From Ostreococcus lucimarinus (taxonomy: Eukaryota): a DNA stretch of 64,000 nucleotides. The notes beneath the pieces were generated by a model. The model was not told the origin of the DNA, did no database searches, and was given only the letters and a program-made list of their open reading frames with translations. Shown one piece after another: positions 8,143-60,918 of this stretch. Numbering within the stretch: the stretch's first letter is position 1; each line of letters begins with the position of its first letter. The stretch lies in NCBI GenBank assembly GCA_000092065.1, contig CP000599.1. One strand, 5' to 3'. The translations under genes and the position numbers were made by a program.

Positions 8143-8157
8143 GCGAAGCGTCGCACA

Positions 8158-23998: not shown

Positions 23999-24514
23999 TC
24001 GGTGGTGTTCGTATACGTATGTTTATGTGTGTGTGTGTTTTACGTATTGAAGGGGTCTGAGTGCTATATACAAGGGTTTAGAGCATAGCCCGGCCGCGCG
24101 CGCCGTCGCGGCGTCGCGGCGTCGTTCGCGCGCGCGGGGGGCGTTCGCGTCTTTCCATACATGGGAGTCGGATGACCTCGTATACGTGATTATACATCGT
24201 ATATTGGGCGCGTGAAGCGGTGTATACGTATCGCGTGCGCGGTGCCCCGCCCCGGCCGCGCGCGCGCGCGCGAGACGCCGGCGCGTCGATCGAGACGCGC
24301 GCGCGCGAACGCGTCGATCGAGACGCGCGCGCGAACGCTCGACGCGCGCGACGGTCGATCGACGACGCGCATTTGGGCGATCGACGACGCGCGACGAACG
24401 CGCGAATCGACGGGCATCGGGAATCGCGAACACCATAGCGATTGCGAGCGATCGCGAACGAGGCGTCGCGAACGAATCGCGTGCGAATCGCGAGGCGGCG
24501 GTTCGAGGCGCGCG

Positions 24515-27379
24515 ATGTCGCGACGGTCGAGCTCGGGGATGCCGGGACTCGGATCGCTGAGCTCGGCGGACAAGACGAAGGCGTCGACGATGCGGTTGTT
24601 TCAAAAATCGCTGCGAGACATGATCACGGGCATTCGCAGTCACAAGGATTCGCAGAAGGAGTTTATAAATAAATGCCTGAGCGACATACGCGCGGAGGTG
24701 GTGAGCTCGGACATCAGGACGAAGGCGGTGGCGATCGAAAAGGCGACGTACCTGCACTCGCTCGGGTATTCGATGCACTGGGCGTCGTTTCACGTGGTGG
24801 AATTGATGTCGACGACGAACGTAAAGTATAAGAGAATCGGATACTTGGCGGCGTGTCAAAGTTTTGGGGACGACACGGACGTGGTGCTGTTGATTCCTAA
24901 TTTGTTGAAGAAGGATTTGGCGTCGCCGAATCCCGCGGAGGCGGCGCTGGCGATTTCGTGCCTGGGGAACATCGTGACGCCGGAGTTGTCGCAGACGCTC
25001 GTGGCGGACGTGTACTCGCTGTTGAACAATCATAAGCCGGATTTGCGACGACGAGCGTGCTTGTGCCTGTACAAGTGCTTCTTGCGATATCCCGAGGCGC
25101 TGCGACCGTCGTTCGCGCGATTGACAGAATGTCTGGACGACGACGATCAATCCGTGGTGCAGGCGGCGGTGACGGTGCTTTCCGAGCTCGCCATGCACAA
25201 CCCGAAGACGTACCTACCGCTCGCGCCCAAGTTTTATAAACTCTTGACGTCGAGCTCGTCGAATTGGATGACGATCAAGCTCGTGAAGGTTTTCGGCGCG
25301 CTCACGCCGCTCGAGCCGCGACTGGCGAAGAAGCTCGCGGGGCCGATCTCGGAGATTCTCGAAACCACCAACGCCAAGTCGTTGATGTACGAGTGCGTGC
25401 GCACGGTGGTGATGGGGATGACGAGTCAAGAAAAGGTCGTCCGCCAAGCGGTGGACAAGCTCAAGGATATGTTGGAGGATCACGATCCAAACATCAAATT
25501 TTTGGCGTTGCACGCGTTGACGTTTTTGCTCGATTCGCACCCGCGCATCGTCGCCGAGCACAAGGGGAACATCTTCGAGTGCCTCGACCACGAAGATTCA
25601 AACATTCAATACTGTGCGTTGAAAATTGTGTGCGGTTTGGTGACGAAGCGCACGCTCATCGACACCACGGCGCACTTGATGAACGCCATGGGCAAGGCGG
25701 ATCAACGCTTCAGGGACGAACTCGTGTTGAGCGTGATTCACATCTGCATGAACGAGCGCTACGCCTTGGTGACGGATTTTGTGTGGTATCTTTCCGTCCT
25801 CGCGGATCTCATTCGTGTCCCGTGCTCGTCTCACGGCGCGCTCATCGGTGAACAAATCATCGACGTGTGCTTGCGCGTCGAGGTGATTCGCGAAGCCGCG
25901 GTGGGCATCTTGGGCCCGCTCTTGCTCGATGACTCATTGCTCGAGCAATCCAACGTCAACAAGACCGTGCCCGGAGCGCTCAAGGCCGTGGCTTGGGTCG
26001 TGGGCGAGTATGCGCACTACGTTGTCGATCACGAAGAAATTCTCGACGCGTTGCTGAGCCCGCAAGTCAAGCAACTCCCGGGCGACGCGCAAGCGGTCTA
26101 CTTGCAAACCATCTTCAAGGTTTACGCCAGTGCGGTGCTGATGTACTCTCAGGGCATTCGCCCCACGGGCGCCTTGGGTGCGCTCCCGGCACCGGCGACG
26201 GAGCCTTTGATCGAGCTCGCCGAAAACGGCGGTGAAGACGGCGGCGCGGCGAGCGCGCCGACGCCGGGCAAGTTGGTTCCCGAATCCGAGGACCTCGTCG
26301 TGTTGCGTCAAAAAGTCTCGCGCGCGATCGAGCCGTTCACTACGAGTTTTAATCTCGAAGTTCGCGAGCGAAGCTGCCAACTGCAGCAAATGCTCGTCAT
26401 CGTCGGCTCGTCCGAGGACAAGGAACCGGGCTCGGGAATCGCCATAATCGAAGCTTTCGCCACGGTTTTGAGCGAAGAGATCCAACCGGTGAGTGTCAAG
26501 GCGCAGCGTAAGATCGACATCCCCGCCGAGCTCGGCGCGGACGAACCGATGAGCGCGGAGTGGGACTACCTACTCGTCAGCAGCGACGACGAGGACGACG
26601 ACGAGTACGCGAGCAAAAAGGGCAAGAAGAACAAAAAGAACAAGAAGAAGGACAAGATGGCCAAGGAGATTCGCGACGTCACCGAAATTTTCGGTGCGAA
26701 GAAGAGCAAGGAACAAATCGCTCGCGAAGAGCGAGAATCGCGCGAAATGCTCGCCAAGCACAGGGAAAAGATGGGGCAATACTATCTTGAGGGCGACGCC
26801 GCGGGCGACGAGAAGAAGAAGTCGAAATCGCCTAAATCTCTCCCCGGTCCGGAGTCTGCGACGATGAACGCGCTCGAAGCTCGATTGGCGAATTACAACG
26901 TTGGCCAAGCGGAACGACCGACGATCAAGGGCGAAAGCGAAAGCGAGAGCGAGGAGGAGGAAGTGCCGACGGGGCCGAGGAAGGGCAAGCATTACGATCC
27001 CAAAGTCGCCTCTTCGCAGTTGCACGGCGAGCTCGGAGCGTACAACCCCATGAAACCGCTCGATCGCGGTGAGCACTTGCCATCAGTCGAGGCATACCCA
27101 CGATTCGATCCGTATTCAAAGGACGACGCGGCATTCAACGCGTTTTCCCCGGACGCGGGCAAGCACCACAAGTCTTCAAAGGAGAAAAAGTCGAAGAAGG
27201 ACAAGTCCAAGTCGAAGAAAAAGAAGGCGAATGGCGAAGGTATCGACGAAGCCGGCGCTAGCAACAAGGGGGGCTCAAAAGAGAAGAAGGCGAAGAAGGA
27301 AAAGAAGAGCAGCGAGAAGAAGACGAAGGCGGCGGACGTCGACGGCTTGGCAAAATCGCTCCTAGACGCCGCAGTGTAA
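24515..27379 (+). CDS. AP3D1: AP-3 adaptor complex delta subunit
   Basis: Collinear similarity to AP-3 delta: RLFQKSLRDMITGIRSHKDSQKEFINKCLSDIRAEV...KRIGYLAACQSFGDDTDVVLLIPNLLKKDLASPN...YPEALRPSFARLTECLDDDDQSVVQAAVTVLSELAMHNPKTYLPLAPKFYKLLTSSSSNWMTIKLVKVFGALTPLEPRLAKKL. Lys-rich C-terminal tail. Confidence 0.85.
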   Translation: MSRRSSSGMPGLGSLSSADKTKASTMRLFQKSLRDMITGIRSHKDSQKEFINKCLSDIRAEVVSSDIRTKAVAIEKATYLHSLGYSMHWASFHVVELMSTTNVKYKRIGYLAACQSFGDDTDVVLLIPNLLKKDLASPNPAEAALAISCLGNIVTPELSQTLVADVYSLLNNHKPDLRRRACLCLYKCFLRYPEALRPSFARLTECLDDDDQSVVQAAVTVLSELAMHNPKTYLPLAPKFYKLLTSSSSNWMTIKLVKVFGALTPLEPRLAKKLAGPISEILETTNAKSLMYECVRTVVMGMTSQEKVVRQAVDKLKDMLEDHDPNIKFLALHALTFLLDSHPRIVAEHKGNIFECLDHEDSNIQYCALKIVCGLVTKRTLIDTTAHLMNAMGKADQRFRDELVLSVIHICMNERYALVTDFVWYLSVLADLIRVPCSSHGALIGEQIIDVCLRVEVIREAAVGILGPLLLDDSLLEQSNVNKTVPGALKAVAWVVGEYAHYVVDHEEILDALLSPQVKQLPGDAQAVYLQTIFKVYASAVLMYSQGIRPTGALGALPAPATEPLIELAENGGEDGGAASAPTPGKLVPESEDLVVLRQKVSRAIEPFTTSFNLEVRERSCQLQQMLVIVGSSEDKEPGSGIAIIEAFATVLSEEIQPVSVKAQRKIDIPAELGADEPMSAEWDYLLVSSDDEDDDEYASKKGKKNKKNKKKDKMAKEIRDVTEIFGAKKSKEQIAREERESREMLAKHREKMGQYYLEGDAAGDEKKKSKSPKSLPGPESATMNALEARLANYNVGQAERPTIKGESESESEEEEVPTGPRKGKHYDPKVASSQLHGELGAYNPMKPLDRGEHLPSVEAYPRFDPYSKDDAAFNAFSPDAGKHHKSSKEKKSKKDKSKSKKKKANGEGIDEAGASNKGGSKEKKAKKEKKSSEKKTKAADVDGLAKSLLDAAV

Positions 27380-27665
27380 TTCGTTGTTCATGCACGATCG
27401 ACGTCATTATCGTGACTGATCGTGTCGCAGGTCGCTCGTTGACGAAGTGTCCACCGTATCACCGTTTCATGTGACCATTAGTCGTGCTGCTGTTGCTGTG
27501 TATTAATTACTACCCCACGTTATCGTGAAAAATGACCGCTCGTCTCCCAATTCAAATTTCATTTTCGCGACGAAAAAAACGCCCGCACAGCGCACACTTT
27601 GACGCTCGGCATCCGTGCGACGCGTTCTGCAACTATTTACAGCACCGACGCCCGCACGAACAGTC

Positions 27666-27896
27666 ATGACAGTGACGTGGGCCGATGCAGGAAATGCCAG
27701 CGCGAAGCTCACACTCGAGGACGTTCGTGGGTGGGCCGTGGAGTATGGGTTCGTGAAGACGAGCGTGCCGTCCGATCGTCCGATCGCCCAACGCGTCGAT
27801 CTCGCGGCGTTTTTCAAGGTTTACAACACGAATGCGTTTTCAACGTTTAAAGATAAATTCAAGAAGAAGCGATTGAAACCGCCGAATGAGACCCAG
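27666..27896 (+). CDS. Acyl-CoA-binding-protein-like gene, exon 1
   Basis: The ORF ends ...KRLKPPNETQ immediately followed by a CAG|GTGAGC donor at 27897. Confidence 0.4.
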
Positions 27897-27978
27897 GTGA
27901 GCTAACTGCGGGCACTCGACGTCTCCGGCGGCGCGATCGACTGAGCGAACACACGACTGACGGGTTTCGTGAACGTAG

Positions 27979-28338
27979 GATGCTGACGATGACGACGACG
28001 ACGAGTTGACAGAAGAACAAATCGCTACTTTTCTATCTGAATATGAACAACACAAAGACTACGAGACGCTCAAGTGGCGATACGTCAAACGTCCAGGAGC
28101 CCAAGCTGCGCGCACAGAAGCGTGGTACGGATGCTACGGCCCGACTCAGTACCTCAAACACGGCGAGAACAAGGAGAAAGCTCCTGTTTGGCGAGAAGAC
28201 GGATCCATCGATTACGGTGGACGCGCGAAATGGGACGCCTGGGACGCGTGTAAAGGAATGACTGAGCAGGAAGCCAAGATTGCGTTCGTGCGCGCCATTC
28301 GCTCGGCTTTGGCGGCTCCGCACGAAAACTTTTACTGA
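27979..28338 (+). CDS. Acyl-CoA-binding-protein-like gene, exon 2 (ACBP-like domain)
   Basis: Acceptor ...acgactgacgggtttcgtgaacgtag|gat (ACTGAC branch motif 20 nt upstream). YGGRAKWDAWDACKGMTEQEAKIAFV matches the ACBP core (GKAKWDAW..KG.S.E.A...Y). Coordinates here are +/-1. Confidence 0.45.
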   Translation, partial: DADDDDDDELTEEQIATFLSEYEQHKDYETLKWRYVKRPGAQAARTEAWYGCYGPTQYLKHGENKEKAPVWREDGSIDYGGRAKWDAWDACKGMTEQEAKIAFVRAIRSALAAPHENFY

Positions 28339-28432
28339 CAACTGCCTCATGCCTTCCTGGCCAACGTGCGTTGCTTTGTGGCCACTTGAACAATCTTCTC
28401 TTCGACCTGTCACGTGGTGAAAAATGCGCTGG

Positions 28433-31400
28433 TTAGTCCACGAACTTTATTAATGAGACAAGACGCACCTTTAAGCCTTTTCGCCGGCGCACCGAGTCCA
28501 TGAGTTGTCGTGCTATGTTGGGTCCGACGTCACCCTCTTCACCGTATTCTTCTCGCTCTTCTTCCGTGGTCGGCGTAAAAAATGGATCCATATCTATGGG
28601 GCTCCAGTGACTAAATACTAATTGCGCTGTGGACGCCCCTGAGGTTTGCGCGCGGAGCTGATCGACAAAGCCAAACGCCGTCGCCACCGGCAGGTAGGCG
28701 TGGATCACGAACACCCCCGTGCCCTCGCGAATGGTCTCCGACAACACTTGCGATCGGCGTTTACCGAGCACGGCGTAAGTACCTCCGAGTGCGTCCGCAG
28801 TGGTAGTGATGACCGCCAAGTACATCGCCTCGACAAGACGCGTTCCGGCCTTGAGCACGGCTTTGCGAATCGCGTCTCGAACCGCATTGATGATTTGACC
28901 CGAGAGCGGACCAAACTGATCGCCATCTGTATCTTCGACGGTACGGTCGTCATCTTCATTGCCTCGATTCACGGCAACGTTCAGCGTTATCTGCACTCCA
29001 GTCAGCGGTTCGTCGCAGAGCGGGCCGCGATCGGTCGCCATCTGAAATCCCGTCAACACGCTTCCTTGCACCGAGTTCAAATCAAAATCAGCCGCGACGT
29101 CTTCTGGCGGAGACCCGTCCATGTCATAGGGCTTTCTCACCCCGAGCGCGACGCCCACGTTAGCGTGGCCAAACTCCTTCTCTTCATCATCCACGTCTAC
29201 GGTGTACGTGCCGACGTTGAGCACGTTTGATCCTACGCGCTTCGGTCCTAGAGCCCACGCCGAACGAAATGTATCCTCCACTACTCCTTCGGGACCTTGC
29301 TCATCGTACGTAGCCGCTTCGCGCGCTGCCGTCACTTTCTCAATGAATGCTTTGGCGAGCATTTTGTTCTCGTCGCTTTCGGTGTCTTTGGCGAGCAATA
29401 TCACCTTGAGCGCATCCGCAGAATCATCCACCGCGCGAACGATGAAGTTGTGAATGGGTTTCGCCGTGCACGTAAACGTCAGACGTCCATTCGCCGTCGA
29501 CGACGACGCCGTACCCGTGGTCGTGACGCCTTCGCGGAAGGAAATGATTGGCGGGGACACACGTATGGGAACCTTGGCGAATCGCTCGCGCAAATCCGCG
29601 ACGCATCGCTCGAGATGCACTTCACCCGCCGCCGCGACGACGTGCTCGCCCGTGTCCATCACGCTCACCTCGACAAAGGCGTCAGCTCTATTCAACAGCC
29701 GTAAACCTTCGACGAGAGCGTCCATGTCGGTCACGTTTTCGGGTTCAACCGCCACCTTCACGATCGCCGACGCCTGAAACATCATTTCCCCAAACGGCGG
29801 GCACTCGAGCGAAGACGAGAGCGTGGCGGACTTTAAAATCGCCCTGTCCAAGCCGCCAATGGCGAGCAAGTTTCCGGCGGGAACTTCATCCACCTTGAAC
29901 ATCCCTTGACCCATCATGAGGTACAGCTCGGTAAGCTCCACTTCTTCGATGTTCGACGCGTCATAATCGCTCGGGTCGTGCTGAGAATTCAACACGTAGA
30001 GCTTGTCGCCTTTTCGTACCGTGCCCGAATAAATTCTCGCAAAGGCTAAAAACTTGACGTCGCCACCACCCGCTTCGGTGAGCGCACCTTGGACGTGTAC
30101 CTTGGGCACAGCTATCATCTTACAGACGAAAATGATCTTGGGCGCGTCATCCGAAGCCTTACCTGCGATTACCGCGCGTCGGGCCTCGTCCAAGCCTTTC
30201 GGGCGCGCGCCACGCAGTACGGGCTGTGGCATGACTCGATTGACGCGTCGCGCCGCGGCGGCTACTGGATTCGGCACGCAATTCACCACCATCTCTAATA
30301 AACACGATGACATCGGAAGCCAGGCACGCATGACGCTCTGTAGAGCCGCTCGACGATCCGTGTTTTTCAGCTCTCGCTCGCCCACGTCCACCTTGAGTGC
30401 TCGAGCGAGGGTGGCCAAATCCTTTTCCACCCACTCGCCGTTTTTTTCGCTCTCCGCCGTGCGATAGATCTTCCAGATCGGCTCCAAAATGCACTGCACG
30501 AACAAAGGTTTAAGTTTCCCGTTCGCCACTTTGCGACTGACGATCCGTTTCATCTTCGGGTGGTAATACCAATCTCCGCACAGCGCCTTGGTCAACGCCG
30601 CGGACGAGCACCCGAGCTTTTCGGCGTACAAATCCGCGAACGCGTCTGGGCGAAACGCCCATCCATCGATCGCGCTCCCAAACGCCACGTTCCCGCTCGC
30701 GATGTTAAACGCCTCTTCCTCATTCACTAAATCTTCTTCGTCTTCGAGATAATCACACGTCGTCGTCGTCGTCGTCGCGTCGTTCTCGCCGCCGTTTTCG
30801 CCCCTTCCCTCCTCGTGCGCGTCGAAGGCGCTCAAAAAAGTATCCGCCTGCGATATAAACTTTTCGCTCTCAAACGCGCTCATCAACCCGTTCACCTCGT
30901 GCAACAACGACCGTATTCTCTCGTACGCTTCCATCGGCGTGTAACCGAGCTCGACACACACGCGATCGAGCTTATTAAATACCAAGCACGGCTTCAATCG
31001 TTCCTCCCACGCCTGTCGCAGCACCGCGTGCGTCTGCACGCACACCCCCTCCACGACGTCCACGACGACCAAGCACCCGTCGCTCAGCCGCGCCGCCGCC
31101 GACACTTCGCTGCAAAAATCCACGTGTCCCGGCGAATCGATCACCGTTATCAGCACTCGCTCGACGATTTCTTCGCCGCCCTCGTCGCCGTCGCGCTTTT
31201 TCTCGCGCGCCGCCCTCGGCGTGTACAGCAGCGCGATCCCCGCGCTCTTCATCGTGATCCCTCGTCGCTGTTCGTCCTCGTGAAAGTCCATGTACCGCAT
31301 CTGTCCCGCTTGCTTTTGCGATATGAACCCGTTGTGCGCCACGAGCGCGTCCGTGAGCGTCGTCTTGCCGTGATCGACGTGCGCGAGCACGCACACGTTT

Positions 31401-31465
31401 CGGCACTGCGCGCCGTCGTCGCGCGCGAATCGCAGCGCGTGCAGCGCTTTCACGGCGTCGTCCAT
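28433..31465 (-). CDS. EFL1: Elongation factor-like GTPase 1 (EFL1/Ria1, 60S maturation)
   Basis: CRNVCVLAHVDHGKTTLTDALVAHNGFISQKQAGQMRYMDFHEDEQRRGITMKSAGIALLY...VIDSPGHVDFCSEVSAAARLSDGCLVVVDVVEGVCVQTHAVLRQAW is collinear with EFL1. Acidic insertion, 1011 aa. The ATG at 31465 was chosen. Confidence 0.85.
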   Translation of the reverse strand: MDDAVKALHALRFARDDGAQCRNVCVLAHVDHGKTTLTDALVAHNGFISQKQAGQMRYMDFHEDEQRRGITMKSAGIALLYTPRAAREKKRDGDEGGEEIVERVLITVIDSPGHVDFCSEVSAAARLSDGCLVVVDVVEGVCVQTHAVLRQAWEERLKPCLVFNKLDRVCVELGYTPMEAYERIRSLLHEVNGLMSAFESEKFISQADTFLSAFDAHEEGRGENGGENDATTTTTTCDYLEDEEDLVNEEEAFNIASGNVAFGSAIDGWAFRPDAFADLYAEKLGCSSAALTKALCGDWYYHPKMKRIVSRKVANGKLKPLFVQCILEPIWKIYRTAESEKNGEWVEKDLATLARALKVDVGERELKNTDRRAALQSVMRAWLPMSSCLLEMVVNCVPNPVAAAARRVNRVMPQPVLRGARPKGLDEARRAVIAGKASDDAPKIIFVCKMIAVPKVHVQGALTEAGGGDVKFLAFARIYSGTVRKGDKLYVLNSQHDPSDYDASNIEEVELTELYLMMGQGMFKVDEVPAGNLLAIGGLDRAILKSATLSSSLECPPFGEMMFQASAIVKVAVEPENVTDMDALVEGLRLLNRADAFVEVSVMDTGEHVVAAAGEVHLERCVADLRERFAKVPIRVSPPIISFREGVTTTGTASSSTANGRLTFTCTAKPIHNFIVRAVDDSADALKVILLAKDTESDENKMLAKAFIEKVTAAREAATYDEQGPEGVVEDTFRSAWALGPKRVGSNVLNVGTYTVDVDDEEKEFGHANVGVALGVRKPYDMDGSPPEDVAADFDLNSVQGSVLTGFQMATDRGPLCDEPLTGVQITLNVAVNRGNEDDDRTVEDTDGDQFGPLSGQIINAVRDAIRKAVLKAGTRLVEAMYLAVITTTADALGGTYAVLGKRRSQVLSETIREGTGVFVIHAYLPVATAFGFVDQLRAQTSGASTAQLVFSHWSPIDMDPFFTPTTEEEREEYGEEGDVGPNIARQLMDSVRRRKGLKVRLVSLIKFVD

Positions 31466-31760
31466 CGCGACGCAGTCCGCGCTCGGTCCTCGGACGCGCC
31501 TTCCTCGCCCCGGCTCTCCGCTCTCCGCTCTCCGCTCTCGGCTCTCGGCCTCGGCCTCGCCGCCGTCTGTCGCCCGCGCGCGCGCGCGTTCGTTAGCGCG
31601 CCGGTCGCGCGGGCGTCGCGTCGTCCGCGGTTCGCGGTCTCGCACTTTTTCACGCATTGAAGACGCATGTAGACCGATGTGTGTGTGTACATCCCCATAT
31701 CATAATATATAACACACGGACACGCGTGGCCGTCCGCGACGCGTCCGCGACGTCGCGATT

Positions 31761-31860
31761 TCGCGCGCGTCCGGGGCGCGGCGCTGGACCCTACCTGATT
31801 TATGTATGGACGTCCGGGGTGCGGCGCTGGACCCTACCTGATTTATGTATGGACGCGCCG
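31761..31860. repeat. Tandem duplication, about 50 bp x2, in the EFL1/RCC1 divergent promoter
   Basis: gtccggggcgcggcgctggaccctacctgatttatgtatggacg appears twice in direct succession. A TATA-like catatcataatatataacac lies at about 31695-31715. Confidence 0.85.
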
Positions 31861-32011
31861 TGTCGACGCGTCGCGTACGCGAGACCACGCGAGCGGTATC
31901 AATCACCGCGTTCGCGTCGATCCATCCTCGCCCGCGTCCCGGCGATCCGTCGGACGGCCGCGGCCGTTGGCGTCGCGTCGACGCCGACGCGACGACGGAG
32001 CGCGACGCGCG

Positions 32012-32431
32012 ATGGGCGCGAGGGCGCGCGCGCGAGACGCGAGACGAACGACGCGCGCGTTCGTCGCGATTCTCGCGCTCGCGCTGCGCGCGGCGACGAC
32101 GCCCGCGGCGGTGCGCGCGACGCGAGCGACGAGAAGACGGACGAAAGACGACGACGACGACGAAGAAAGACGCGACGACGACGAGGGACTGACGGACGGA
32201 CGCGACGACGCAGGGAACGACGCTGCGATGGCGAAAATTACACGCGTGGGGGGAGAACAAGCTCGGGGAACAGGGACGAGGCACGGTGCGGACGAAACGC
32301 CGAAACGCGACGCGACGGGACGACTGACGAGACGCGCGGCGCGGCGGCGAACAGGCGACGAGCGCGGGGACGTGCGCGGAGGGAGAGCTGCCGGAATTAG
32401 GATGGGATCTGAACGGTGCGTCGAACTGACG
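32012..32431 (+). CDS. RCC1-EGF membrane protein, putative exon 1 (signal peptide plus acidic linker)
   Basis: MGARARARDARRTTRAFVAILALALRAATTPAAV is signal-peptide-like. The exon ends ...gaa ctg acg|GTGCGC (phase 0). The only upstream donor whose phase matches the exon-2 acceptor is this one. This exon is inferred and unverified. Confidence 0.35.
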
Positions 32432-32487
32432 GTGCGCGCGTTGATCCAGCGGCGAACTGACGGTGCGCGCGTTGATCCACGACAGAG

Positions 32488-32890
32488 ACGGTGTCGCGCG
32501 TCGTCGCGGGCCTGGACCACGCCGTGGCGCTCACCGCGCGAGGCGAGGCGTACGCGTGGGGGAGCAATCGATGCGGACAGCTCGGCACGGGAGACTTTAT
32601 AGATGCGCTCACGCCACAAAGGATTTTGAGCTCGCACACGATCGTGGACGTCGCCGTGGGCGTCGAACACACGCTCGCGCTCGCGAGCGACGGCGCGCTC
32701 TTGGCATTCGGGTGCAACACGCGAGGCGCGCTCGGGATCGGGTCGGCGAATTTAGGCAGGCACGCGACGCCGCAAACGGTGACGTCGGCAGAGACGTTCA
32801 CCGCGATAGCCGCGGCGGGCGCGCACAGCGTAGGACTCACCGAACAAGGGGCGGTGTACACGTGGGGGGCAAACAACCAAGGCCAGCTCG
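32488..32890 (+). CDS. RCC1-EGF membrane protein, exon 2 (RCC1 repeats)
   Basis: Acceptor cacgacagag|acg with an ACTGAC branch upstream. TVSRVVAGLDHAVALTARGEAYAWGSNRCGQLG...HTLALASDGALLAFGCNTRGALG...AHSVGLTEQGAVYTWGANNQGQLG. There is no in-frame ATG, so an upstream exon is needed. Donor g|GTGCGT. Confidence 0.65.
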
Positions 32891-32968
32891 GTGCGTCTCG
32901 CTTTTTCGCTCGCGCCGCGACGACGCGCACGGCGCGGACGGACGACTGACGACGCGCGCGACGAACAG

Positions 32969-33033
32969 GGCTCGGTGGATGCGTTTTTCCGGGCGGCCCG
33001 GGACGGGATCCGTGCCTGAACGACGTGCACACG
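32969..33033 (+). CDS. RCC1-EGF membrane protein, exon 3
   Basis: The 78-nt intron (gtgcgt...gacgactgacgacgcgcgcgacgaacag) restores the frame across the stop at 32947. Donor acg|GTGAGA. Confidence 0.5.
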
Positions 33034-33090
33034 GTGAGAGAAACGAACGCTTCGCGTCATGATTTATTAATTAATTTTTTTATTTCGCAG

Positions 33091-33268
33091 CCCACGAAAG
33101 TGCTCGTGATGAACGACGGGCTCGTTTTACCGCCCATTAAATTAATCGCCGCCGGCGGAGGCACGTTGGCGGGCGTGGCGCGCGTTCCCATCGGCGGACA
33201 CACCGTGGCGGTGGCGAAATTAGATAATTCAGTGTACGCGTGGGGCGATAATTTTGCCGGACAGTTGG
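33091..33268 (+). CDS. RCC1-EGF membrane protein, exon 4
   Basis: Acceptor tttttttatttcgcag|ccc. PTKVLVMNDGLVLPPIKLIAAGGGTLAGVARVPIGGHTVAVAKLDNSVYAWGDNFAGQLG. Donor g|GTACGT. Confidence 0.65.
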
Positions 33269-33313
33269 GTACGTCATCAGAGCGCGCCTCGAGCGATTCT
33301 GACGTTTCCACAG

Positions 33314-33387
33314 GCGTGCCGCAGGTATACTTCAACGCGTCGTCATCCGCGTACTTTAACAACACTCCGACGTACACCCCGAACAAG
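33314..33387 (+). CDS. RCC1-EGF membrane protein, exon 5
   Basis: Acceptor ttctgacgtttccacag|gc. VPQVYFNASSSAYFNNTPTYTPNK. Donor aag|GTACGG. Confidence 0.5.
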
Positions 33388-33443
33388 GTACGGCGCATTT
33401 TTCTCGCGCAGGATGCACATTTAATTAATTAATTAATTCGCAG

Positions 33444-33817
33444 TACGACGCGACTACCGGAGAGTATTACAACCGTCACGAAAAACCCATGGTCGTGCAC
33501 GCACACGCCATCGTCGTCGCGAGCGGCACCAGCGTGCAAGCGAATAAGACGATTCTCCCGGCGATCAAGCAAATAGACGCGGGGATCGCGCACACGATTA
33601 TGCTACTCGAGACGGGTGAAATTTTCACGTGGGGGGACAATTACTACGGTCAACTCGGGCTCGGATACGCGTCGCGTCAGAACACGCCGCACATGTTCTA
33701 CGTCACGCGCTTTCGCGACGTTCCGCAGATGATTGACAAGCCCACGCGCGTGAAGAAGTTTGACTTTGTCGAAGAGACGGTGGTGAATTCTGTACCGATT
33801 AATTATACCATCACCGG
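33444..33817 (+). CDS. RCC1-EGF membrane protein, exon 6
   Basis: Acceptor ttaattaattaattaattcgcag|tac. ...IAHTIMLLETGEIFTWGDNYYGQLGLGYASRQNTPHMFYV... Donor gg|GTACGT. Confidence 0.65.
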
Positions 33818-33890
33818 GTACGTTTCGCGCGGAATCAACGCCCAAGAATCGGTGACGAATCGTACCTTTACTGACTCCGTTCGCGCGTAG

Positions 33891-33927
33891 GACGATAAAG
33901 GAAGAGGGCAACGCGATATTCACACAG
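33891..33927 (+). CDS. RCC1-EGF membrane protein, exon 7 (micro-exon)
   Basis: Acceptor ctttactgactccgttcgcgcgtag|g. (G)TIKEEGNAIFTQ. Donor cag|GTGCGA. Phases are consistent with the neighbouring exons. Confidence 0.45.
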
Positions 33928-34017
33928 GTGCGAAATTAATTTTGATTAATTTAATTATTTCTCGTCGAGAAGCGCGCAAAGACTGATTGAGCGCGCTCTG
34001 CGCGGCGTATCACGCAG

Positions 34018-34076
34018 GTCAGCGCCGGTGGTCACGTCTCCATGGCGATCACGTCCAACAATAAGCTATTCATATG
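34018..34076 (+). CDS. RCC1-EGF membrane protein, exon 8
   Basis: Acceptor gcgtatcacgcag|gtc. VSAGGHVSMAITSNNKLFI(W). Donor tg|GTACGT. The W codon is split across the intron. Confidence 0.6.
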
Positions 34077-34152
34077 GTACGTGCGACCGCACGCCGCGAC
34101 CACCAACGCAGCCGCAGACTGACGCTGAAATTTTCGTTTTCTCGCGCGCAAG

Positions 34153-35158
34153 GGGCGATAACTCTGAGGGTCAGCTCGGCGCTTGTGGATGCGGAGGATG
34201 CGTCGCGTACGACGCCGCGGACACGGGCGTATGCACAGTCAATTCCACGGCAGCGTGTCCATGTAATTGCGGGGGACAAGGCACGTGCGTGTACACCCCT
34301 GCTTCGGCGGCGAACAACTTTATCGCGACAAACGAAGGTAAATGCGTCACCTACGGCACAGGCGCCGAGGCGGTGGCCAAGTGCAATTGCGCTAAAGGCG
34401 CTCTAAATCCTACTCTGAACCCTCCCCGGATGGTGGGGCAGATAAGTCTCATGGATGAACCGATGGTGTCTGATTTGAGCTACGAAAAGCAGTTCACGAC
34501 GGTGACGTACGCGAGCGCCGGTGGCGGCGCCATGTTCGCCATATCCGAATCCAACTGCAAAGACGACGCTGACGGCGTCGTGTGCTCTGGACGAGGACAG
34601 TGCTTAGCTGATGGTTCGTGCAACTGTAACGACGGCTCTGGTGGACCGACGTGTGAGAACGTGTGCCCGCTGGCGACGGATGAGGACGAGGCGCTATTCT
34701 CCCGATACGGTCTCGACGAAAACATCGCCGGTGAAAAGTGCGCGGGCCACGGTACGTGCGATCCAATCACCGCGGAGTGCATTTGTGACCCCGGCTTTTT
34801 CGGCCCGCGCTGCACGTACATCTGCCGTCGCGATGCAAACCTGAAAGTCTGTTCCGGGAACGGCACGTGCGTCTACAACCCCGAAACCTCCTCGTCGCCC
34901 TACTGCGAATGTGACCGCTTCCAAAATCCGGGAGAGTGTGCGCAGCGTGGTCTACAGCTCTATCCTCAAGGTTGGTGCAGCTTTCACGGTGGTGAAGCCA
35001 CGGGAGGCTTTGCGAGCTGTTTCGTCGCCGGCGTTTGCGGCGACTGCGAGAGTCCCGCCGCGGGACGCTTCGATTCGCCCCTCGTCCTCGTCCTCTTGTT
35101 CGCCGCCGTCGTCGTCTTCGTCTTCGGCGACGATTCGCATCGAGACGGCATCGCGTAA
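34153..35158 (+). CDS. RCC1-EGF membrane protein, exon 9 (last RCC1 repeat, EGF-like Cys-rich repeats, TM anchor)
   Basis: Acceptor ttttcgttttctcgcgcgcaag|g reconstitutes WGDNSEGQLG. Three EGF/tenascin-like modules (CSGRGQCLADGSCNCNDGSGGPTCENVC; CAGHGTCDPITAECICDPGFFGPRCTYIC; CSGNGTCVYNPETSSSPYCECDRFQNPGEC). TM LVLVLLFAAVVVFVFG, then a short tail. Confidence 0.7.
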
Positions 35159-35429
35159 ATCTTTGAATATCTTCCCTCGTTCGTCCGAGCGTGACTTGTA
35201 ATCCACGCACGCAAGCACGCGAACGCCCGGCTCGCCCGCGCGCCGCGGCTGCGCTTTGGACCAGTCGAGCGCGAGAATCGCTCGAACCGACACACTCGAG
35301 CGCTCGTCGCCGCGCGCGAGCGGGCACCCGCGCGAAGACGCGACGGAAACGAAACAAACGATCACCGGGACGTGTCGACGCGCGATTCTCGCGCGATAAC
35401 GACGCGTCGAACGCGCGCGACGTTGCGAA

Positions 35430-38294
35430 ATGTCTCGAGGGGGACAACGCTCGGCGTCGACGTTTGACGACCCGGGGACGTCGCTGAGCGACGCTCGCGG
35501 ACGAGGAAGCGCGCACGATGGGTCTCGAAACGCCTCAGGGTCGCTGCGCGCGACGAATGGGAGCAGGAGCGCGAATGGATCGGACACGGCGAGCCGAACG
35601 GTGAACGGCGGCGGCGCGAACGCGGCGCTCGAACTGGCGGCGACGACGTGCGATGAGTTGGCGCGCGTGCTCGAGTCGCGACGGTACGGACGAGAGAGTG
35701 CGAATTTAGGCAGCGAAGCGATGAAGACGATCGAGACGATCGAGCGCGTGTTGAAGCGAAATAGAGAAAATTTGAGGGAATTTTTCAGCGCGTGTTTTCA
35801 GCCAATTTTGTGTCGGTTGTTTTCGTTCGACGGATCATCCAGTGAGGGGTGGATGAACGCCGCGTTCACCACCGGAAGCGAGAGAGATGTGAAAGACTTG
35901 TTGGATTTCTTATCTCCGGAGGGATCGTTGATCCGAGCGATGTTGATCGCAGATTCGGACAAGTTGGTGCAGTTCGCGTTTCCGCTCGATCGTCTGCCGG
36001 AACGAACACAAAGAATGTTACAGACGGAAAGCGGAGCGATGGCGCTGAACCGATCACCCCCATACGCTGGTTGCATTAAACGAGACAGTGTGGGGAAGTA
36101 TCAGGTGCATTTGGGGCTGTATCATTACTTCATGTTTTGGACGGCATATTTCGCGATGCGACCGGGGGGAAGACGAGGGTCGTCGTCATCGTCGCTTTAT
36201 TCTGCGGGACAAAGTCCGTCTTACAAGAGTGGAAGTGGTCCTTTCGGTGGCACTGGATCTCCAATCAGTAGTGGTGCTGCGTTTCTCGGTGGGCAGTGGC
36301 CATCGACGCCGTCTTTGATGCAACGCGCGCCGTCGAAGCGCGTGCATCCGTATCGCGAGTTGTTACTCTCGCACTTGAAATTCTTTCTTCCGCGCGAGGA
36401 GACGGGAAAGAGTTGGGGCGGTGGCGGTAAAAGTGGTGATGATAAGGCGAATGCGGTGCAAGCTGAGTTTCTGGTGAGCATTTTGAGCGAATTTTGGATG
36501 CCCGTGGAGGAGGCGCGGGGGCCGCAGTCGGGCGACGGCGCTCGAGGCGCGACCGGATCGCCGTTTCGAAGCTCGTTCCCAGCCATGGGTCGCGTCGTCG
36601 ACGCTGCTATGCGCCAGGCAAACATGAGCCCAGTGCGTTCGAGCGGCGATGCGCACCGACGAGACGGCACGCGCAGGTATGCGTACAACCCACCCGCGGT
36701 GGATCACGTCAACGCGGTGACACTCTTGATTACGTACTTGTTTGCCGAACTTCCAGATCGTCGACCGGAGAACTTAGAGGCGATGAAAACCATCGAGCGC
36801 GCGCGTGAGATGATCCAACGCCCGCTGTATTGCTTTTTACGCGATGCCTTTACGCAGTGGCCGACTGAAAGCTCGACAAATACGGAACCCATGGTGACGC
36901 TTTGGGTGGCGTATTTTGCGCCGTGGTGCGCCAAATATCCGCAGAGTCAGACGAAGTCGTCGTCGAGCGGATCGAAGCGCTCAGGATCACCGCGCGCCAT
37001 GCTTACTTCTCCACTCAAATCTAGCGGTAGTGGATCTTCATCAAAGGTGGCGGGGTACGACGACGCGTTGCTCTCGCGCGGAAAAGAGTTCAAGTTTGAC
37101 GATCAAGTTGTCGACACTCCTGGGGTGTTTTCCCACGTTCGTCACGTGTTGAAGAGCATTCCGTTCTACCATGAACTGATGAAGCATTTCTTAGAACTGT
37201 GCTGTAAGCGCGTGCCGCTCGACGCCGAGGGCACGGCGACCGTGTTGCTGGCGGCTTTGGAACCGCTCGCGGCGGCGCCAAAGTTGTTGAAGATCTTACA
37301 AGACGTTGAAGACGGCTACGCCGAGTTTGTTCTGGACCCATTCAAGGGAACTCTGAAAACTATGCAAGCGCGAGAAGATTTAGCGGCGAACGCGGAATCA
37401 TACTACCCTCTCATTCGCTCTCAGCTCCAAGAATGGGAACCCGACGTCGACCCCGTGACGCTTGGCGACACGCTTCCGGGAACGCCCGGGTCCGCGGTGA
37501 AGAGCTCGCCGCTGAGCAAGTGGCACGGTGCTGCTGCACGCCTAGCGGCAAACAAATCATTCGAATCGGACAAAGCCAATGGGGGAAGTTCCAAGCATTT
37601 GCGCATGTTCACACCGGAGACCGACGGGTTGGCGCAAGTTGCCATCGCGCTCATTCATCGCCTCGAGCGCGACGCAACGCAAGTGCCTACGTCTCATCCG
37701 CTTCGCAAGAAAGTGCCAGCATTTCGAGCGGCCTCGTTCACGGTGTTTCGCTTGGAAAGATTCCGCGATACGCCGTACCTGAAGAGCCCAACGTCGACAA
37801 AGTACGTGGACACGGACGCGGGTGAGAATCGTCAAGGATGGTCATCCGCGCGCACGAGCGCGAAAGAAATGTACAAGGGTGAGTGGATGCACAGACCGAT
37901 CGGTGGAAATGAAATTACTTTGCTCGTGAAAATTTTGGTGCCCATTTCGGTGTTCTTGAACAAAAAGCTCGGACTTGACGGCGTGGCCACGGATGAGGGC
38001 GCGAACAAGCGACGAATCGCGTACGCCGACGTGCGTTCGGCGGTGACGGAATCGTGGGCACGCGCGCGGCGAACATCGCGACGGGGCAACCCCGTTGTGG
38101 ACTATGTGTTCTCGATTTTTGCCGTTTTAGAGGAGGTGACGCTCGGATTGTGTCGTCGTAAAGGGTTGACCGTCAACTTGCGACCTTTTAGCGAGTATCA
38201 AATGCTCGCGCTCGCCTGGTGCGCCTACGTCGCGTTCTGGTTCGCGCGCGTGGTTTTGGCCGTGATCACGATGGATTTTGACGAAGATTACTGA
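35430..38294 (+). CDS. Sphingomyelin phosphodiesterase 4 (nSMase3/SMPD4)-like membrane protein
   Basis: [41 protein letters not shown] parallels the SMPD4 block [57 protein letters not shown] and the C-terminal TM [22 protein letters not shown] also match this family. Similarity is from memory. Confidence 0.55.
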   Translation: [954 protein letters not shown]

Positions 38295-52093: not shown

Positions 52094-54157
52094 CTAAAAC
52101 GTTTTCTTTTGCTTTGGAAACTTGCTCGGCCACGACCCGTTGGGCTGCGATTTCGCCGCCGACCGAGAGGGCTTGACGTCCAACGCCGCCTCCAACGCGT
52201 CCGCGAGCGTGTTGCACCGCACGAGTTCGATGCCAGTCTTTTTACCCATCTCTGGCGAGCTTCCAGCCTCGGGCAAGAGCACGCGCTTGAACCCCATCGT
52301 CGCCGCCTCGGCGATGCGACGCTCGGCTTGCATCACCGGTCGCAACTCGCCGCCCAAGCCGACTTCGCCGAAGAAGCACATATCTGGCGGAAGCGGTTTC
52401 TCGACGAAACTACTCGCGATCGCCAGCGCGACGGCGACATCCGTGGATGGATCTTCGAGCTTCATACCACCCACGATGTTGATGAAGACGTCGTGCTTTT
52501 GCAGGCGTCGACCGAGGACGAATTTCGCGAGCACGGCGAGCAAGAGTTGCATGCGTTCGAATCGCAGACCGACGGCGGTGCGAATCGGCGGCGCGCTCAT
52601 TCCACCACCTTCGCCCGCATCCGCGCGCTCGTTCGTGAGCGCTTGGACTTCGAGCATGAACGGTCGCGAGCCTTGCACCGTCACCGTCGGCGCCGCGGAG
52701 ACGTCTGGGCTCAAGATGCGTTCGCCGAGGAAGAGCGCCGACGGCGACGCCACAGGTTTCATGCCCCCGTCGCTCATTTGAAACACCCCGACTTCGTCCG
52801 TGGAGCCGTAGCGATTCTTGTGCCCGCGCAAGATGCGCACGGCTCGATCGGCGTCGCCCTCCAAGTAAAGCACGACGTCGACGATGTGCTCCAACACGCG
52901 CGGACCCGCTATGTCGCCGGATTTCGTGACGTGACCGATGATGAACACCGGCATCCCCGTCGTTTTCGCCGCGTGCAACAGCGCGGTGGCGCACTCGCGC
53001 ACCTGAGACACGCTTCCCGGGCTTCCCGTGGCGTCTTCCAAGAACACGGTTTGAATGGAATCCACCACGAGCGCCGCGGGCTTGAGCGTCGACACCGCCT
53101 CGAGAATATTTTCCAGGCGCGTTGCGCTGTATAAATAAATCCCGTTCGGATCAATCCCCATGCGCTCGGCGCGTCCGGCGACTTGCTCCACGGACTCTTC
53201 GCCAGACGCGTAAAGCACGCCTCCCGCGGCGATCGATTCGTTCGCGCCGTCTTCTTCGCCCTCTCGTTCCTCGCCTCGCGCGCCCAGAAGTCCCGCGAGC
53301 TGTAACAAAATCGTCGACTTCCCCACCCCCGGATCGCCACCGACGAGAATCATCCCGCCCGGAACCACTCCCCCGCCTAACACCCGCTCGATCTCCTTCC
53401 CCAATTCCTCTCTCAACCGCATCCTCGGCATCGTTTGCCTCTCCCCGTTCGCTCGCGGCCTCAGCACGTCCCCGAGCGCTCGCGGCGCGCTCGTCTCCGC
53501 GACCCACCCGAGCGCTCGCGCGCCGTCGCTCGCGCGTCCTCGCCCGTTCGCGTTCCCGCGCGTCGTCGCGTTCTCCGCCATCCGCGCCACCGCTCGCGCG
53601 CCCGCCCCGCCGCCCGCGCTCGCCTTCCCCGCGCCGCCTCCCGAGGTCGGCGCCAGCGCGATCGCCTTCATCGTGTCCCAGCTCTTGCACGCCGGGCACT
53701 GTCCCAGCCACTGCCGCGAGTCCTCGCCGCACTCGGCGCACACGTACGCCGTCTTCGTCTGCGACCCCGCGCCGCGAGATCCGGATCCGGCGCGCGCGAC
53801 GACGCCGCGTCGCGTCGTCGTCGCGAATCCACTCGCGGTCGACGTCGTCGACGCGCGCGCGCCGGTGCCGTGATTCGAGCGCGGATTCGCGCCGCGATTT
53901 CGATGCCGTCGACCGCGCCGATCGCGCGTCGTCGTCGAGGGCGTCGCGCGCGGCGAGGTCGTCGAGATCGTCGTCGCGAATCGGCGCATCGTCGTCGCGA
54001 ACGCGCGCGCGGTGACGGTCGTCGAGCGCGCCTCGAGCGCGACGCGCGCGAGCAGGGACGCCGCGGCGCGACCGCGCATGCGACGCGGCGCGACGTGACG
54101 ACGCGACGCGCGCCAGAACGCGTTCGAACGCGCGAATCGATCGGTCATTCGCGTCAC
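52094..54157 (-). CDS. radA: DNA repair protein RadA/Sms (bacterial-type), with an organellar-presequence-like N-terminus
   Basis: C4 zinc finger CAECGEDSRQWLGQCPACKSWDT. Walker A GGDPGVGKSTILLQ. KNRYGSTDEVGVFQM. Lon-like C-terminal domain ...FGEVGLGGELRPV. Confidence 0.8.
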   Translation of the reverse strand: MTRMTDRFARSNAFWRASRRHVAPRRMRGRAAASLLARVALEARSTTVTARAFATTMRRFATTISTTSPRATPSTTTRDRRGRRHRNRGANPRSNHGTGARASTTSTASGFATTTRRGVVARAGSGSRGAGSQTKTAYVCAECGEDSRQWLGQCPACKSWDTMKAIALAPTSGGGAGKASAGGGAGARAVARMAENATTRGNANGRGRASDGARALGWVAETSAPRALGDVLRPRANGERQTMPRMRLREELGKEIERVLGGGVVPGGMILVGGDPGVGKSTILLQLAGLLGARGEEREGEEDGANESIAAGGVLYASGEESVEQVAGRAERMGIDPNGIYLYSATRLENILEAVSTLKPAALVVDSIQTVFLEDATGSPGSVSQVRECATALLHAAKTTGMPVFIIGHVTKSGDIAGPRVLEHIVDVVLYLEGDADRAVRILRGHKNRYGSTDEVGVFQMSDGGMKPVASPSALFLGERILSPDVSAAPTVTVQGSRPFMLEVQALTNERADAGEGGGMSAPPIRTAVGLRFERMQLLLAVLAKFVLGRRLQKHDVFINIVGGMKLEDPSTDVAVALAIASSFVEKPLPPDMCFFGEVGLGGELRPVMQAERRIAEAATMGFKRVLLPEAGSSPEMGKKTGIELVRCNTLADALEAALDVKPSRSAAKSQPNGSWPSKFPKQKKTF

Positions 54158-60666: not shown

Positions 60667-60918
60667 CCGCGGCGAATTCGGACGCCCGAATTCCTCGCGC
60701 GAGCTGTGTACGCATACATTCTGACAACATCACATTCTTATTCATTGAATCCCGACGGACGCGCGCGCGTCCGTATCGTCCGCGCGACTCGAAGCGATTT
60801 GACTTCGACCTCGACTTCGGCGCCCAGACTGCCCGATCACGCCTCGGCCGCGCGGAATCGCGCCGCCGCCGAATTCGCGCGACGCGTCGCCATCTCGCGT
60901 CGCGCGCGCGCATCGCGC

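Follow-up and report, generated by a model that had tools for sequence, protein, structure and literature searches.

An intron-rich gene of Ostreococcus lucimarinus predicted to encode a secretory-pathway protein with an RCC1 propeller, EGF-like modules and a C-terminal anchor

We analyzed a stretch of 64,000 nucleotides (nt) from the Ostreococcus lucimarinus contig CP000599.1 (hereafter the window). Positions 32012-35158 on the plus strand, from an ATG at 32012 to a stop codon at 35156-35158, read as a real, intron-rich gene when compared with related genomes. We consider it probable (roughly 0.75) that the locus is a nuclear gene with 11 exons from a Mamiellophyceae-type green picoalga, encoding a secretory-pathway protein of 809 amino acids (aa) that is predicted to serve as a binding or adhesion module at the cell surface. 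Conserved sequence features support a single polypeptide that starts with a putative signal peptide, continues through an RCC1 propeller and EGF-like modules, and ends in an anchor, so that the propeller would lie on the extracytoplasmic side.

Gene structure and orthologous loci

Three-frame translation of positions 31900-35300 gave RCC1-like segments that shift frame, with short GT..AG intervals between them, followed by a Cys-rich open frame of 335 codons. An earlier annotation of this DNA (the original prediction) had read nine exons, eight introns of 55-90 nt, and a product of 871 aa. Splice reconstruction instead yielded 11 exons and 10 introns of 45-103 nt, with every junction GT..AG and in frame, and a product of 809 aa. 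This structure was compared with two syntenic loci, L002 (a 148-kb ENA contig, ~95% nt identity) and L004 (58.8% protein identity), and with relatives having few or no introns, all of which agree with the revised structure. The relatives came from a protein search, which identified a family of 650-860-aa proteins on contigs of marine picoeukaryotes. In L002 and L004, the gene keeps its adaptin, EFTUD2-like, and downstream neighbors, and it is syntenic in at least three genomes.

The L004 locus provided a complete 11-exon model of 783 aa, with intron phases identical to those of the window gene; all 10 intron positions are common to the two. The exon lengths (window/L004, exons 1 to 11) were 99/90, 72/69, 61/61, 405/411, 65/65, 178/178, 74/56, 374/377, 37/37, 59/59, and 1006/949 nt. 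The differences are all multiples of three, and the intron lengths vary freely.

The first exon of the original prediction (32012-32431) hides two introns, and the three exons 32012-32110, 32214-32285, and 32355-32415 are backed by both L002 and L004. Exon 1 (32012-32110, residues 1-33, MGARARARDARRTTRAFVAILALALRAATTPAA) encodes the putative signal peptide, consisting of an Arg-rich n-region, the h-region AFVAILALAL, and a c-region of small residues. Its donor is GTGCGC in phase 0, the ATG context and the exon are kept in L002, and counterparts were found in L004 (MGRSSHSGRGVGRVVFTLLFLAIAIASGVE) and at a further locus, L001. Intron 1 (32111-32213, 103 nt, GTGCGC...CTGAC...GCAG) measures 107 nt in L002 and 176 nt in L004, and its identity to L002 is 62% with indels, compared with 86-88% in the flanking exons. 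Exon 2 (32214-32285, residues 34-57, GTTLRWRKLHAWGENKLGEQGRGT) contains the first WG motif. It lies in a second frame within the former exon 1, which encodes KLHAWGENKLGEQGRGT, a perfect RCC1 WG motif, between a CTGAC...CAG acceptor and a GTGCGG donor. The exon matches LTGYRRVHAWGFNRFGQLG, which follows the signal peptide at once in P0004, P0006, P0008, and P0011 and leaves no space there for a 107-residue Arg/Asp-rich linker; the L004 counterpart is VFRKLHAWGENKHGELGLGQ.

Intron 2 (32286-32354, 69 nt) is 99 nt long in L002 and 92 nt in L004, with 62% identity and 30 gap columns relative to L002. Exon 3 (32355-32415, 61 nt, residues 58-78, ATSAGTCAEGELPELGWDLN), which includes Cys64, is unchanged in length and phase in L002 and L004 and is 96.7% identical to L002, and its true donor, GAACG/GTGCGT at 32415/32416, is kept in both. 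Intron 3 (32416-32485, 70 nt; 66 nt in L002) holds a 31-nt tandem duplication with copies at 32418-32448 and 32449-32479 (97% identical, repeat family D9), and the false end of exon 1 at 32431/32432 arose because a pseudo-donor lies within this duplication. The duplication also doubles a CTGAC branch-like site together with the GGTGCGCGCG pseudo-donor, and its first copy is absent from L002. Overall, introns 1-3 are 62-76% identical to those of L002 with indels, whereas exons 1-4 are 86-97% identical; exons 2-4 are free of indels and exon 1 has a single in-frame indel of 6 nt.

These comparisons make the nine-exon model, in which a single 420-nt exon 1 would put 107 linker residues rich in Arg, Asp, and Gly between signal peptide and propeller, very improbable. 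Although it is open and in frame in the window, gives 871 aa, and uses a donor (GTGCGC at 32432) resembling the other donors of the gene, that donor sits in the strain-specific 31-nt duplication. In L002, read-through from the ATG meets stop codons, whereas the three-exon version is intact. The extra segments of the nine-exon model carry indels that are not multiples of three relative to L002 and L004, at only 62% identity, and the alternative frame encodes the WG-motif exon, which directly follows the signal peptide in every relative with an intact N-terminus. For annotation, GC-rich introns that stay open in frame can pass for coding sequence, and comparison with a sister genome settles the matter.

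From exon 4 onward (exon 2 of the original prediction), all previously proposed junctions hold, being GT..AG and in frame, and these junctions, including those of a 37-nt micro-exon, are co-linear with relatives whose open reading frames (ORFs) run unbroken across the matching regions. Exon 4 (32486-32890, residues 78-213) encodes RCC1 blades 2-4 with WG motifs at residues 102, 152, and 204 and is 96% identical to L002. Exon 5 (32969-33033, residues 213-234; 65 nt also in L004) encodes the LGGCVFPGGPGRDPCLNDVHT loop with the Cys217/Cys228 pair; it aligns with LGGC..DPCL of relatives, and both Cys are kept in seven of the eight aligned relatives. Exon 6 (33091-33268, residues 235-294; 178 nt also in L004) encodes blade 5 with the WG motif at 285. 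The following exon 7 (33314-33387, residues 294-318) encodes a loop with NAS and NNT sequons and is co-linear with GK.Q.Y....TPNK of relatives that are uninterrupted here, the L004 exon being 18 nt shorter and in frame. Blade 6, with the WG motif at 381 and long loops, is encoded by exon 8 (33444-33817, residues 319-443; 377 nt in L004).

The micro-exon, previously numbered 7, is exon 9 (33891-33927, 37 nt, residues 443-455, (G)TIKEEGNAIFTQ). It is 100% identical in L002, retains its length and phase in L004 (KIFDENNATFTQ), and aligns with GKIRYESDAIITH of P0001, one of the uninterrupted relatives. Exon 10 (34018-34076, residues 456-475, VSAGGHVSMAITSNNKLFIW; 59 nt also in L004) ends within the codon of Trp475, which is split TG/G across 34076/34153, as had been proposed. 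Exon 11 (34153-35158, 1006 nt including the stop, residues 475-809) is a continuous ORF containing the seventh WG motif, a Cys-rich insert, the last strands of the propeller, the EGF-like modules, and the anchor. Its identity amounts to 97% with the metagenomic ORF P0229 and to 54-60% with P0231-P0236.

A combination of RCC1 repeats, EGF modules, and an anchor in one protein had been suggested as something to seek in relatives. Single ORFs with an RCC1 propeller, a Cys-rich/EGF region, and a hydrophobic C-terminus were found in P0001, P0012, P0013, P0087, P0361, and P0362. The alternative of two genes, one encoding the RCC1 part and a separate one encoding the EGF and transmembrane (TM) part, was therefore excluded, since these relatives hold both parts in one ORF. 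Relative to L002, we counted 44 synonymous and 52 nonsynonymous codon differences, corresponding to a rough ratio of nonsynonymous to synonymous rates (dN/dS) of ~0.4, and the gene appears to be under some constraint.

Several further features of this locus were observed. Ten introns occur within 3.1 kb, whereas the neighboring genes (24212-38294) are uninterrupted ORFs of ~950-1070 codons. More distant relatives have lost most of the introns, and those of the N-terminal region seem to be kept (L001, 640-1400). In L002, a 2-nt insertion at ~8651 (corresponding to ~34939 of the window) shifts the frame of the last exon, and P0230 ends with an out-of-frame tail; the insertion may be either an assembly error or a disabled allele of the L002 strain. 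Additionally, the palindromic motif TTAATTAA has four matches in the 64-kb window, compared with 0.09 expected, and these occur only in introns 5 and 7 (33067-33074 and 33421-33436). At the L004 locus, all six matches fall in the ortholog, five of them in introns 5, 7, and 9 (6971-6982, 7303-7314, and 7835-7842). The AT-rich introns carrying TTAATTAA lack the CTGAC branch-like motif of the GC-rich introns; UUAAU conforms to the branch consensus yUnAy, and TTAATTAA yields TAA in all three frames.

Domain architecture and predicted topology

The RCC1 repeats were identified with the Pfam entries PF00415, PF13540, and PF25390. WD40_RLD matched at 3.9e-68 (230.8 bits, cut-off 150; best stretch residues 41-314) and RCC1 at 1.8e-48 (163.3 bits, cut-off 21.7), while RCC1_2 also scored 163.3 bits; the last two entries each matched in six stretches. 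A regular-expression scan located seven WG-x-N-x-x-G-x-(L/Q)-G motifs at residues 45, 102, 152, 204, 285, 381, and 475. Six or more blades had been proposed; the RCC1 repeats are indeed present, and on these motifs their number is seven, so read as seven canonical repeats and seven blades. A profile of the family matched the solved structures of UVR8 (4e-78) and RCC1 (7e-60), also those of RPGR and HERC1/2, and that of the secreted bacterial protein BLIP-II (5e-12).

The seven-bladed beta-propeller fold was recovered in AlphaFold2 (AF2) models of the relatives P0159 and P0006, which are 41-42% identical to the window protein in a MAFFT alignment and whose blades are predicted with a predicted local distance difference test score (pLDDT) above 90. 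A Foldseek search with the P0159 model returned UVR8, HERC2, RPGR, and RCC1 at E-values of 1e-26 to 1e-21, with TM-scores (normalized to the target) of up to 0.79.

After the seventh GQLG, within the last blade, the window protein has a Cys-rich insert (34184-34390, plus strand; residues 486-554) of 69 residues with 11 Cys, each of which is invariant across eight aligned relatives. The relative P0365 lacks the insert, and its WG motif runs almost straight into an AAGGALFAL strand. The segment following the insert (34493-34546, plus strand; residues 589-606, FTTVTYASAGGGAMFAIS) has the V-x-V-x-A-G-x-x-x-x-x-A-(L/I) appearance of an RCC1 strand pair. Strands were predicted there in both models (E560-566 and E570-575 in P0159; E671-677 and E682-687 in P0006; pLDDT ~60-84), and the N-terminal WG strand of the P0006 model was assigned to E40-47 (pLDDT ~77-83). 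With a blade hidden Markov model (HMM), a composite of the segment 589-606 and the N-terminal WG strand scored 9.3 bits, compared with at most 4.6 bits in 200 shuffles. From these data, we infer that the first Cys-rich block is inserted within the last blade and that the N-terminal WG strand may close the propeller with residues 589-606 in a velcro closure.

Three EGF-like modules follow at 34583-34666, 34739-34825, and 34850-34939 (span 34583-34939, plus strand; residues 619-646, 671-699, and 708-737). The three repeats of the original prediction stand: the modules C-x-G-x-G-x-C ... C-x-C ... G-x-x-C can be read directly in the protein, and Pfam EGF_Teneurin (26.6 bits, cut-off 24.3) and EGF_2 (25.2 bits, cut-off 22.1) each matched in two stretches, by small margins. 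The classic EGF entry PF00008 remained under its cut-off (18.2 bits versus 21.5), and sequence matches in the PDB to the EGF repeats of SCARF1, reelin, and selectin were weak (E-values of 4e-4 to 0.2). The Cys of the EGF region are kept in relatives with a complete C-terminus, with Cys625 replaced by Ala in one of eight. A C-terminal Cys cluster (34976-35047, plus strand; residues 750-773, CSFHGGEATGGFASCFVAGVCGDC) is kept as GWCS.H....GF..C...G.CG.C in every such relative. In total, 36 of the 38 Cys are conserved, namely 33 in the C-terminal half (in the relatives covering them), Cys64 (in the four aligned relatives covering that region), and the Cys217/Cys228 pair. The protein also has seven N-X-S/T sequons.

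Only two strongly hydrophobic segments, residues 16-30 and 781-803, were detected on the Kyte-Doolittle scale, and the best 10-aa mean of the leader was 3.01. In all nine intact N-termini of the family (window, L002, L004, L001, P0006, P0008, P0182, P0361, and P0362), a basic n-region is followed by a hydrophobic core of 10 aa or more, which lies ahead of the first beta-strand; the distance from core to strand is 5-12 residues in most of them and ~35 in P0362. The leader that an upstream exon had been proposed to supply is thus present, joined to the propeller through a different exon structure. Together, the leader, the conserved Cys, the sequons, and the EGF-like modules resemble a signature of folding in the lumen of the endoplasmic reticulum (ER), as judged from sequence.

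The hydrophobic anchor (35075-35125, plus strand; residues 783-799, SPLVLVLLFAAVVVFVF) reaches a 15-aa Kyte-Doolittle mean of up to 3.49, and a hydrophobic C-terminus occurs in every relative with a complete C-terminus. In the window protein, it is followed by the acidic tail GDDSHRDGIA (35126-35158, plus strand) and the TAA stop. The hydrophobic segment and short tail of the type-I TM protein originally proposed were confirmed, although the tail has 10 residues rather than 11 and a signal for attachment of glycosylphosphatidylinositol (GPI) may fit instead. The tail is lineage-specific, occurring only in the window protein, P0229 (L003 locus), and, with one residue different, L002, whereas all more distant relatives end 0-3 residues past the hydrophobic stretch (P0001, P0012, P0013, P0087, P0231-P0237, P0361, and P0362). 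A type-I TM topology is therefore one option only. It fits the window sequence literally, and across the family a putative lipid anchor is no less likely.

For the mature window protein, cleavage of the hydrophobic segment and its replacement by a lipid anchor is a tentative but sizeable possibility. The stretch is only ~16-17 residues long here and 14-18 residues long in the distant members, where it is terminal, and small residues precede it just past the last Cys (C-x-S-P-(A/G)-A, CEDSAPP, or CANTAPP), in the textbook layout of a GPI signal. Against this, the charged extension GDDSHRDGIA is carried by the window protein, L002, and P0229, and such an extension past a GPI signal tends to turn the signal into a TM anchor.

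Less likely than lipid anchoring is entry into the secretory pathway followed by shedding or by residence in an internal compartment (ER, Golgi, vacuole, or secretory vesicle) rather than at the plasma membrane. Short hydrophobic anchors are more typical of early secretory membranes, and the anchor here is of such a length; however, direct reading of the C-terminus revealed no KDEL/HDEL or di-lysine motif, and layouts with a propeller on an EGF stalk are typical of surface receptors.

Some observations weigh against the architecture and topology preferred here. In the blade HMM analysis, the segment 589-606 alone scored 2.4 bits, no better than shuffles. The insert region has low pLDDT in both AF2 models, and the C-terminal half of both is mostly below 60, leaving the EGF folds and the blade closure structurally unverified. 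Finally, the h-region of the leader is short and broken by Arg27, and an N-terminus rich in Ala and Arg might in principle serve as an organellar presequence. A plastid or mitochondrial presequence, which would place the propeller outside the secretory pathway, is nevertheless highly improbable: Ala, Arg, and Thr abound in the first 33 residues, as is often the case in green-algal presequences, but the leaders of relatives are clearly hydrophobic (e.g., LLLLLLLLCV, VVYLLVILLV, and VFLFALFSCL), and the protein has 36 conserved Cys, EGF-like modules, N-glycosylation sequons, and a conserved C-terminal anchor.

Possible function and genomic setting

On the preferred reading of a secretory-pathway protein exposed at the cell surface, the N-terminal leader would act as a cleavable signal peptide that brings the chain into the ER, where the ~36 conserved Cys would form disulfides and the sequons would be glycosylated. 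The seven blades would close through pairing of the N-terminal WG strand with the strands after the Cys-rich insert, and the EGF-like stalk would keep the propeller off the membrane. The anchor would be provided by the C-terminal hydrophobic segment, which in this lineage would be a TM helix with a short tail and in relatives may be a GPI signal. One face of the propeller might then serve as a ligand site in cell-cell, cell-matrix, or cell-virus recognition. No cytoplasmic signaling domain is present in the protein, and a surface binding or adhesion module is therefore its most likely role, as suggested by its architecture. A role as a Ran exchange factor is not expected, the activity of a Ran guanine nucleotide exchange factor (Ran-GEF) being implausible at an extracytoplasmic site.

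A more specific proposal is that a canonical RCC1 propeller was recruited as the ligand-binding head of a receptor in a Mamiellophyceae-restricted family, acting in gamete or partner recognition or in prasinovirus attachment. We regard this as speculative and, in this form, improbable. If it were true, the protein would be the first eukaryotic case of a canonical RCC1 ectodomain having a defined role outside the cell, and its fairly fast evolution (dN/dS ~0.4 against the ~95% identical strain and 59% identity to the L004 ortholog) would represent divergence driven by recognition.

The Mamiellophyceae (Micromonas, Ostreococcus, and Bathycoccus) rank among the most abundant eukaryotic phototrophs of the sea, and little is known of the surface proteins on which their virus attachment, mating, and cell-cell contact depend; the window protein, predicted to be exposed at the surface, conserved, syntenic, rich in Cys, and provided with a large propeller head, is a concrete candidate receptor. 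With regard to protein evolution, the RCC1 repeat, usually treated as intracellular in eukaryotes, appears here joined with EGF modules and a membrane anchor.

The window is gene-dense, with a GC content of ~55-72% per 2 kb, and contains long uninterrupted ORFs for eukaryotic housekeeping proteins. These include a protein with an adaptin N-terminal region (24212-27379), an EFTUD2/Snu114-like GTPase (28433-31657, minus strand), a protein with RadA/Sms-like domains (AAA_25, zinc ribbon, and ChlI; 52094-54157, minus strand), an LSD1-like amine oxidase, and SYF1 (60706-63594). The SYF1 ORF is 100% identical only to a metagenomic protein; its best match of named origin is that of Ostreococcus tauri at 68%, and those of other green algae are ~50-57% identical.

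Upstream of the RCC1 gene, the 354-bp divergent intergenic region facing the EFTUD2/Snu114-like gene contains a 43-nt tandem duplication (31768-31853, 98% identical), which may be a promoter element. The downstream ORF of 954 aa (35430-38294) had no Pfam match at E <= 1e-5; it is syntenic in L004 and at the locus L005, where it encodes 955 aa with a faint mit_SMPDase match. In addition, an ORF of 817 aa at 7567-10020 has an IPT/TIG domain (2.2e-11) and is another possible surface or secreted protein.

Family breadth and comparison with known systems

The family appears to be narrow, consisting of marine picoeukaryote proteins in which the whole layout is conserved. An exhaustive search with the last exon returned 24 clusters at E <= 1e-10 among 1.84 billion representatives. 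Several ORF fragments and the longer P0361, P0362, P0013, P0365, and P0016 match in single long stretches, and at least six of the 24 (P0366, P0369, P0372, P0373, P0374, and P0377) match in many short stretches. P0366 and P0369, the two of these six scanned with Pfam, are multi-EGF proteins that lack RCC1 repeats. Viral contigs yielded no relative of the C-terminal module. The literature searched contained no description of a family combining RCC1 repeats, EGF modules, and an anchor, of an RCC1 and EGF protein in Micromonas, or of EGF-like surface proteins of Micromonas. Two text matches to RCC1 were false, one in a paper on the brown-algal protein PKN (an RCC18 trap) and one in an Ostreococcus paper (strain numbers). 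Nd6p and Zymoseptoria Zt89160 are not described as secreted or extracellular in the papers on them.

The intracellular proteins RCC1/Ran-GEF, UVR8, HERC1/2, and RPGR share the repeat family and the fold with the window protein and are its best structure and sequence matches; the signal peptide, disulfide-rich modules, and membrane anchor predicted for the window protein are absent from them. A UVR8-like function was considered and rejected, the GWRHT Trp motifs being absent: the blades instead carry GLDHAVAL, GVEHTLAL, GAHSVGL, GGHTVAV, GIAHTIML, and GGHVSMAI, of the form G-x-x-H-x-x-(A/G)-L.

The original prediction described RCC1 repeats as classically cytoplasmic or nuclear and thereby overstated the novelty of this protein, as precedents exist in BLIP-II and other secreted bacterial RCC1 proteins, in CRINKLY4, and in crinkly proteins of Micromonas. 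The secreted and surface RCC1 proteins of bacteria (BLIP-II and fusions to type IX secretion system (T9SS) sorting, S-layer homology, SpaA-pilin, or thrombospondin-3 domains) have canonical propellers outside the cytoplasm. Many strong matches in our searches were bacterial RCC1 proteins with extracellular sorting domains, the scores of such repeat-rich matches being inflated. They differ from the window protein in being prokaryotic, in using other anchoring modules, and in lacking an EGF stalk, and their identity to it is 25-32% over the propeller only.

Within the green lineage, the land-plant receptor-like kinases CRINKLY4/ACR4 have seven crinkly repeats of ~39 aa, each with a C(X~10)CWG motif and only distantly related to RCC1, and crinkly-repeat proteins are listed together with CRINKLY4 from Micromonas, where they bear signal peptides, and from Chlorella (PMC4617170). 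CRINKLY4 resembles the predicted layout of the window protein in the order of a signal peptide, a seven-bladed RCC1-related ectodomain, a Cys-rich module, and a membrane anchor, and its disulfides are likewise thought to steady the propeller outside the cell. In contrast, the window protein has canonical Pfam RCC1 repeats, a single conserved C-x10-C loop (Cys217/Cys228), and no CWG in any blade. Its Cys-rich part is EGF-like rather than TNFR-like, no TNFR or kinase Pfam match was obtained, and it ends 10 residues past the anchor. Membership of the CRINKLY4 family was rejected on these grounds, namely the lack of C(X~10)CWG repeats, a TNFR module, and a kinase. The CR4-like proteins of Micromonas, XP_002508396.1 and XP_003056408.1 (433-467 aa), were also checked and are different genes.

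The ectodomains of animals that combine propellers and EGF modules may follow a similar logic, with a ligand-binding propeller and EGF-like spacers on a membrane anchor. The low-density lipoprotein (LDL) receptor has a six-bladed YWTD propeller flanked by EGF modules, and the EGF modules of the window protein match teneurin-type, EGF_2, SCARF1, and reelin patterns; EGF arrays of animals also include those of tenascin. The six-bladed YWTD propeller nevertheless differs from the seven-bladed RCC1 propeller and belongs to an unrelated lineage. As both the propeller family and the lineage differ, convergent domain shuffling is the most likely explanation of this resemblance.

A further parallel is provided by the fertilization factor PKN of brown algae, which has a type-I layout: its signal peptide is followed by a seven-bladed propeller outside the cell, a spacer, a single TM helix, and a short acidic tail, and it is shown to mediate gamete recognition (bioRxiv 10.64898/2026.02.20.706836). 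Its spacer is mucin-like rather than EGF-like and its propeller type is not stated as RCC1; PKN may be regarded as a functional analogue only, by layout. Current understanding is not overturned by the window protein, all of whose parts were known beforehand. It is a new domain combination made from known parts, extracytoplasmic RCC1-type propellers being already known in bacteria and, in divergent form, in plants and Micromonas.

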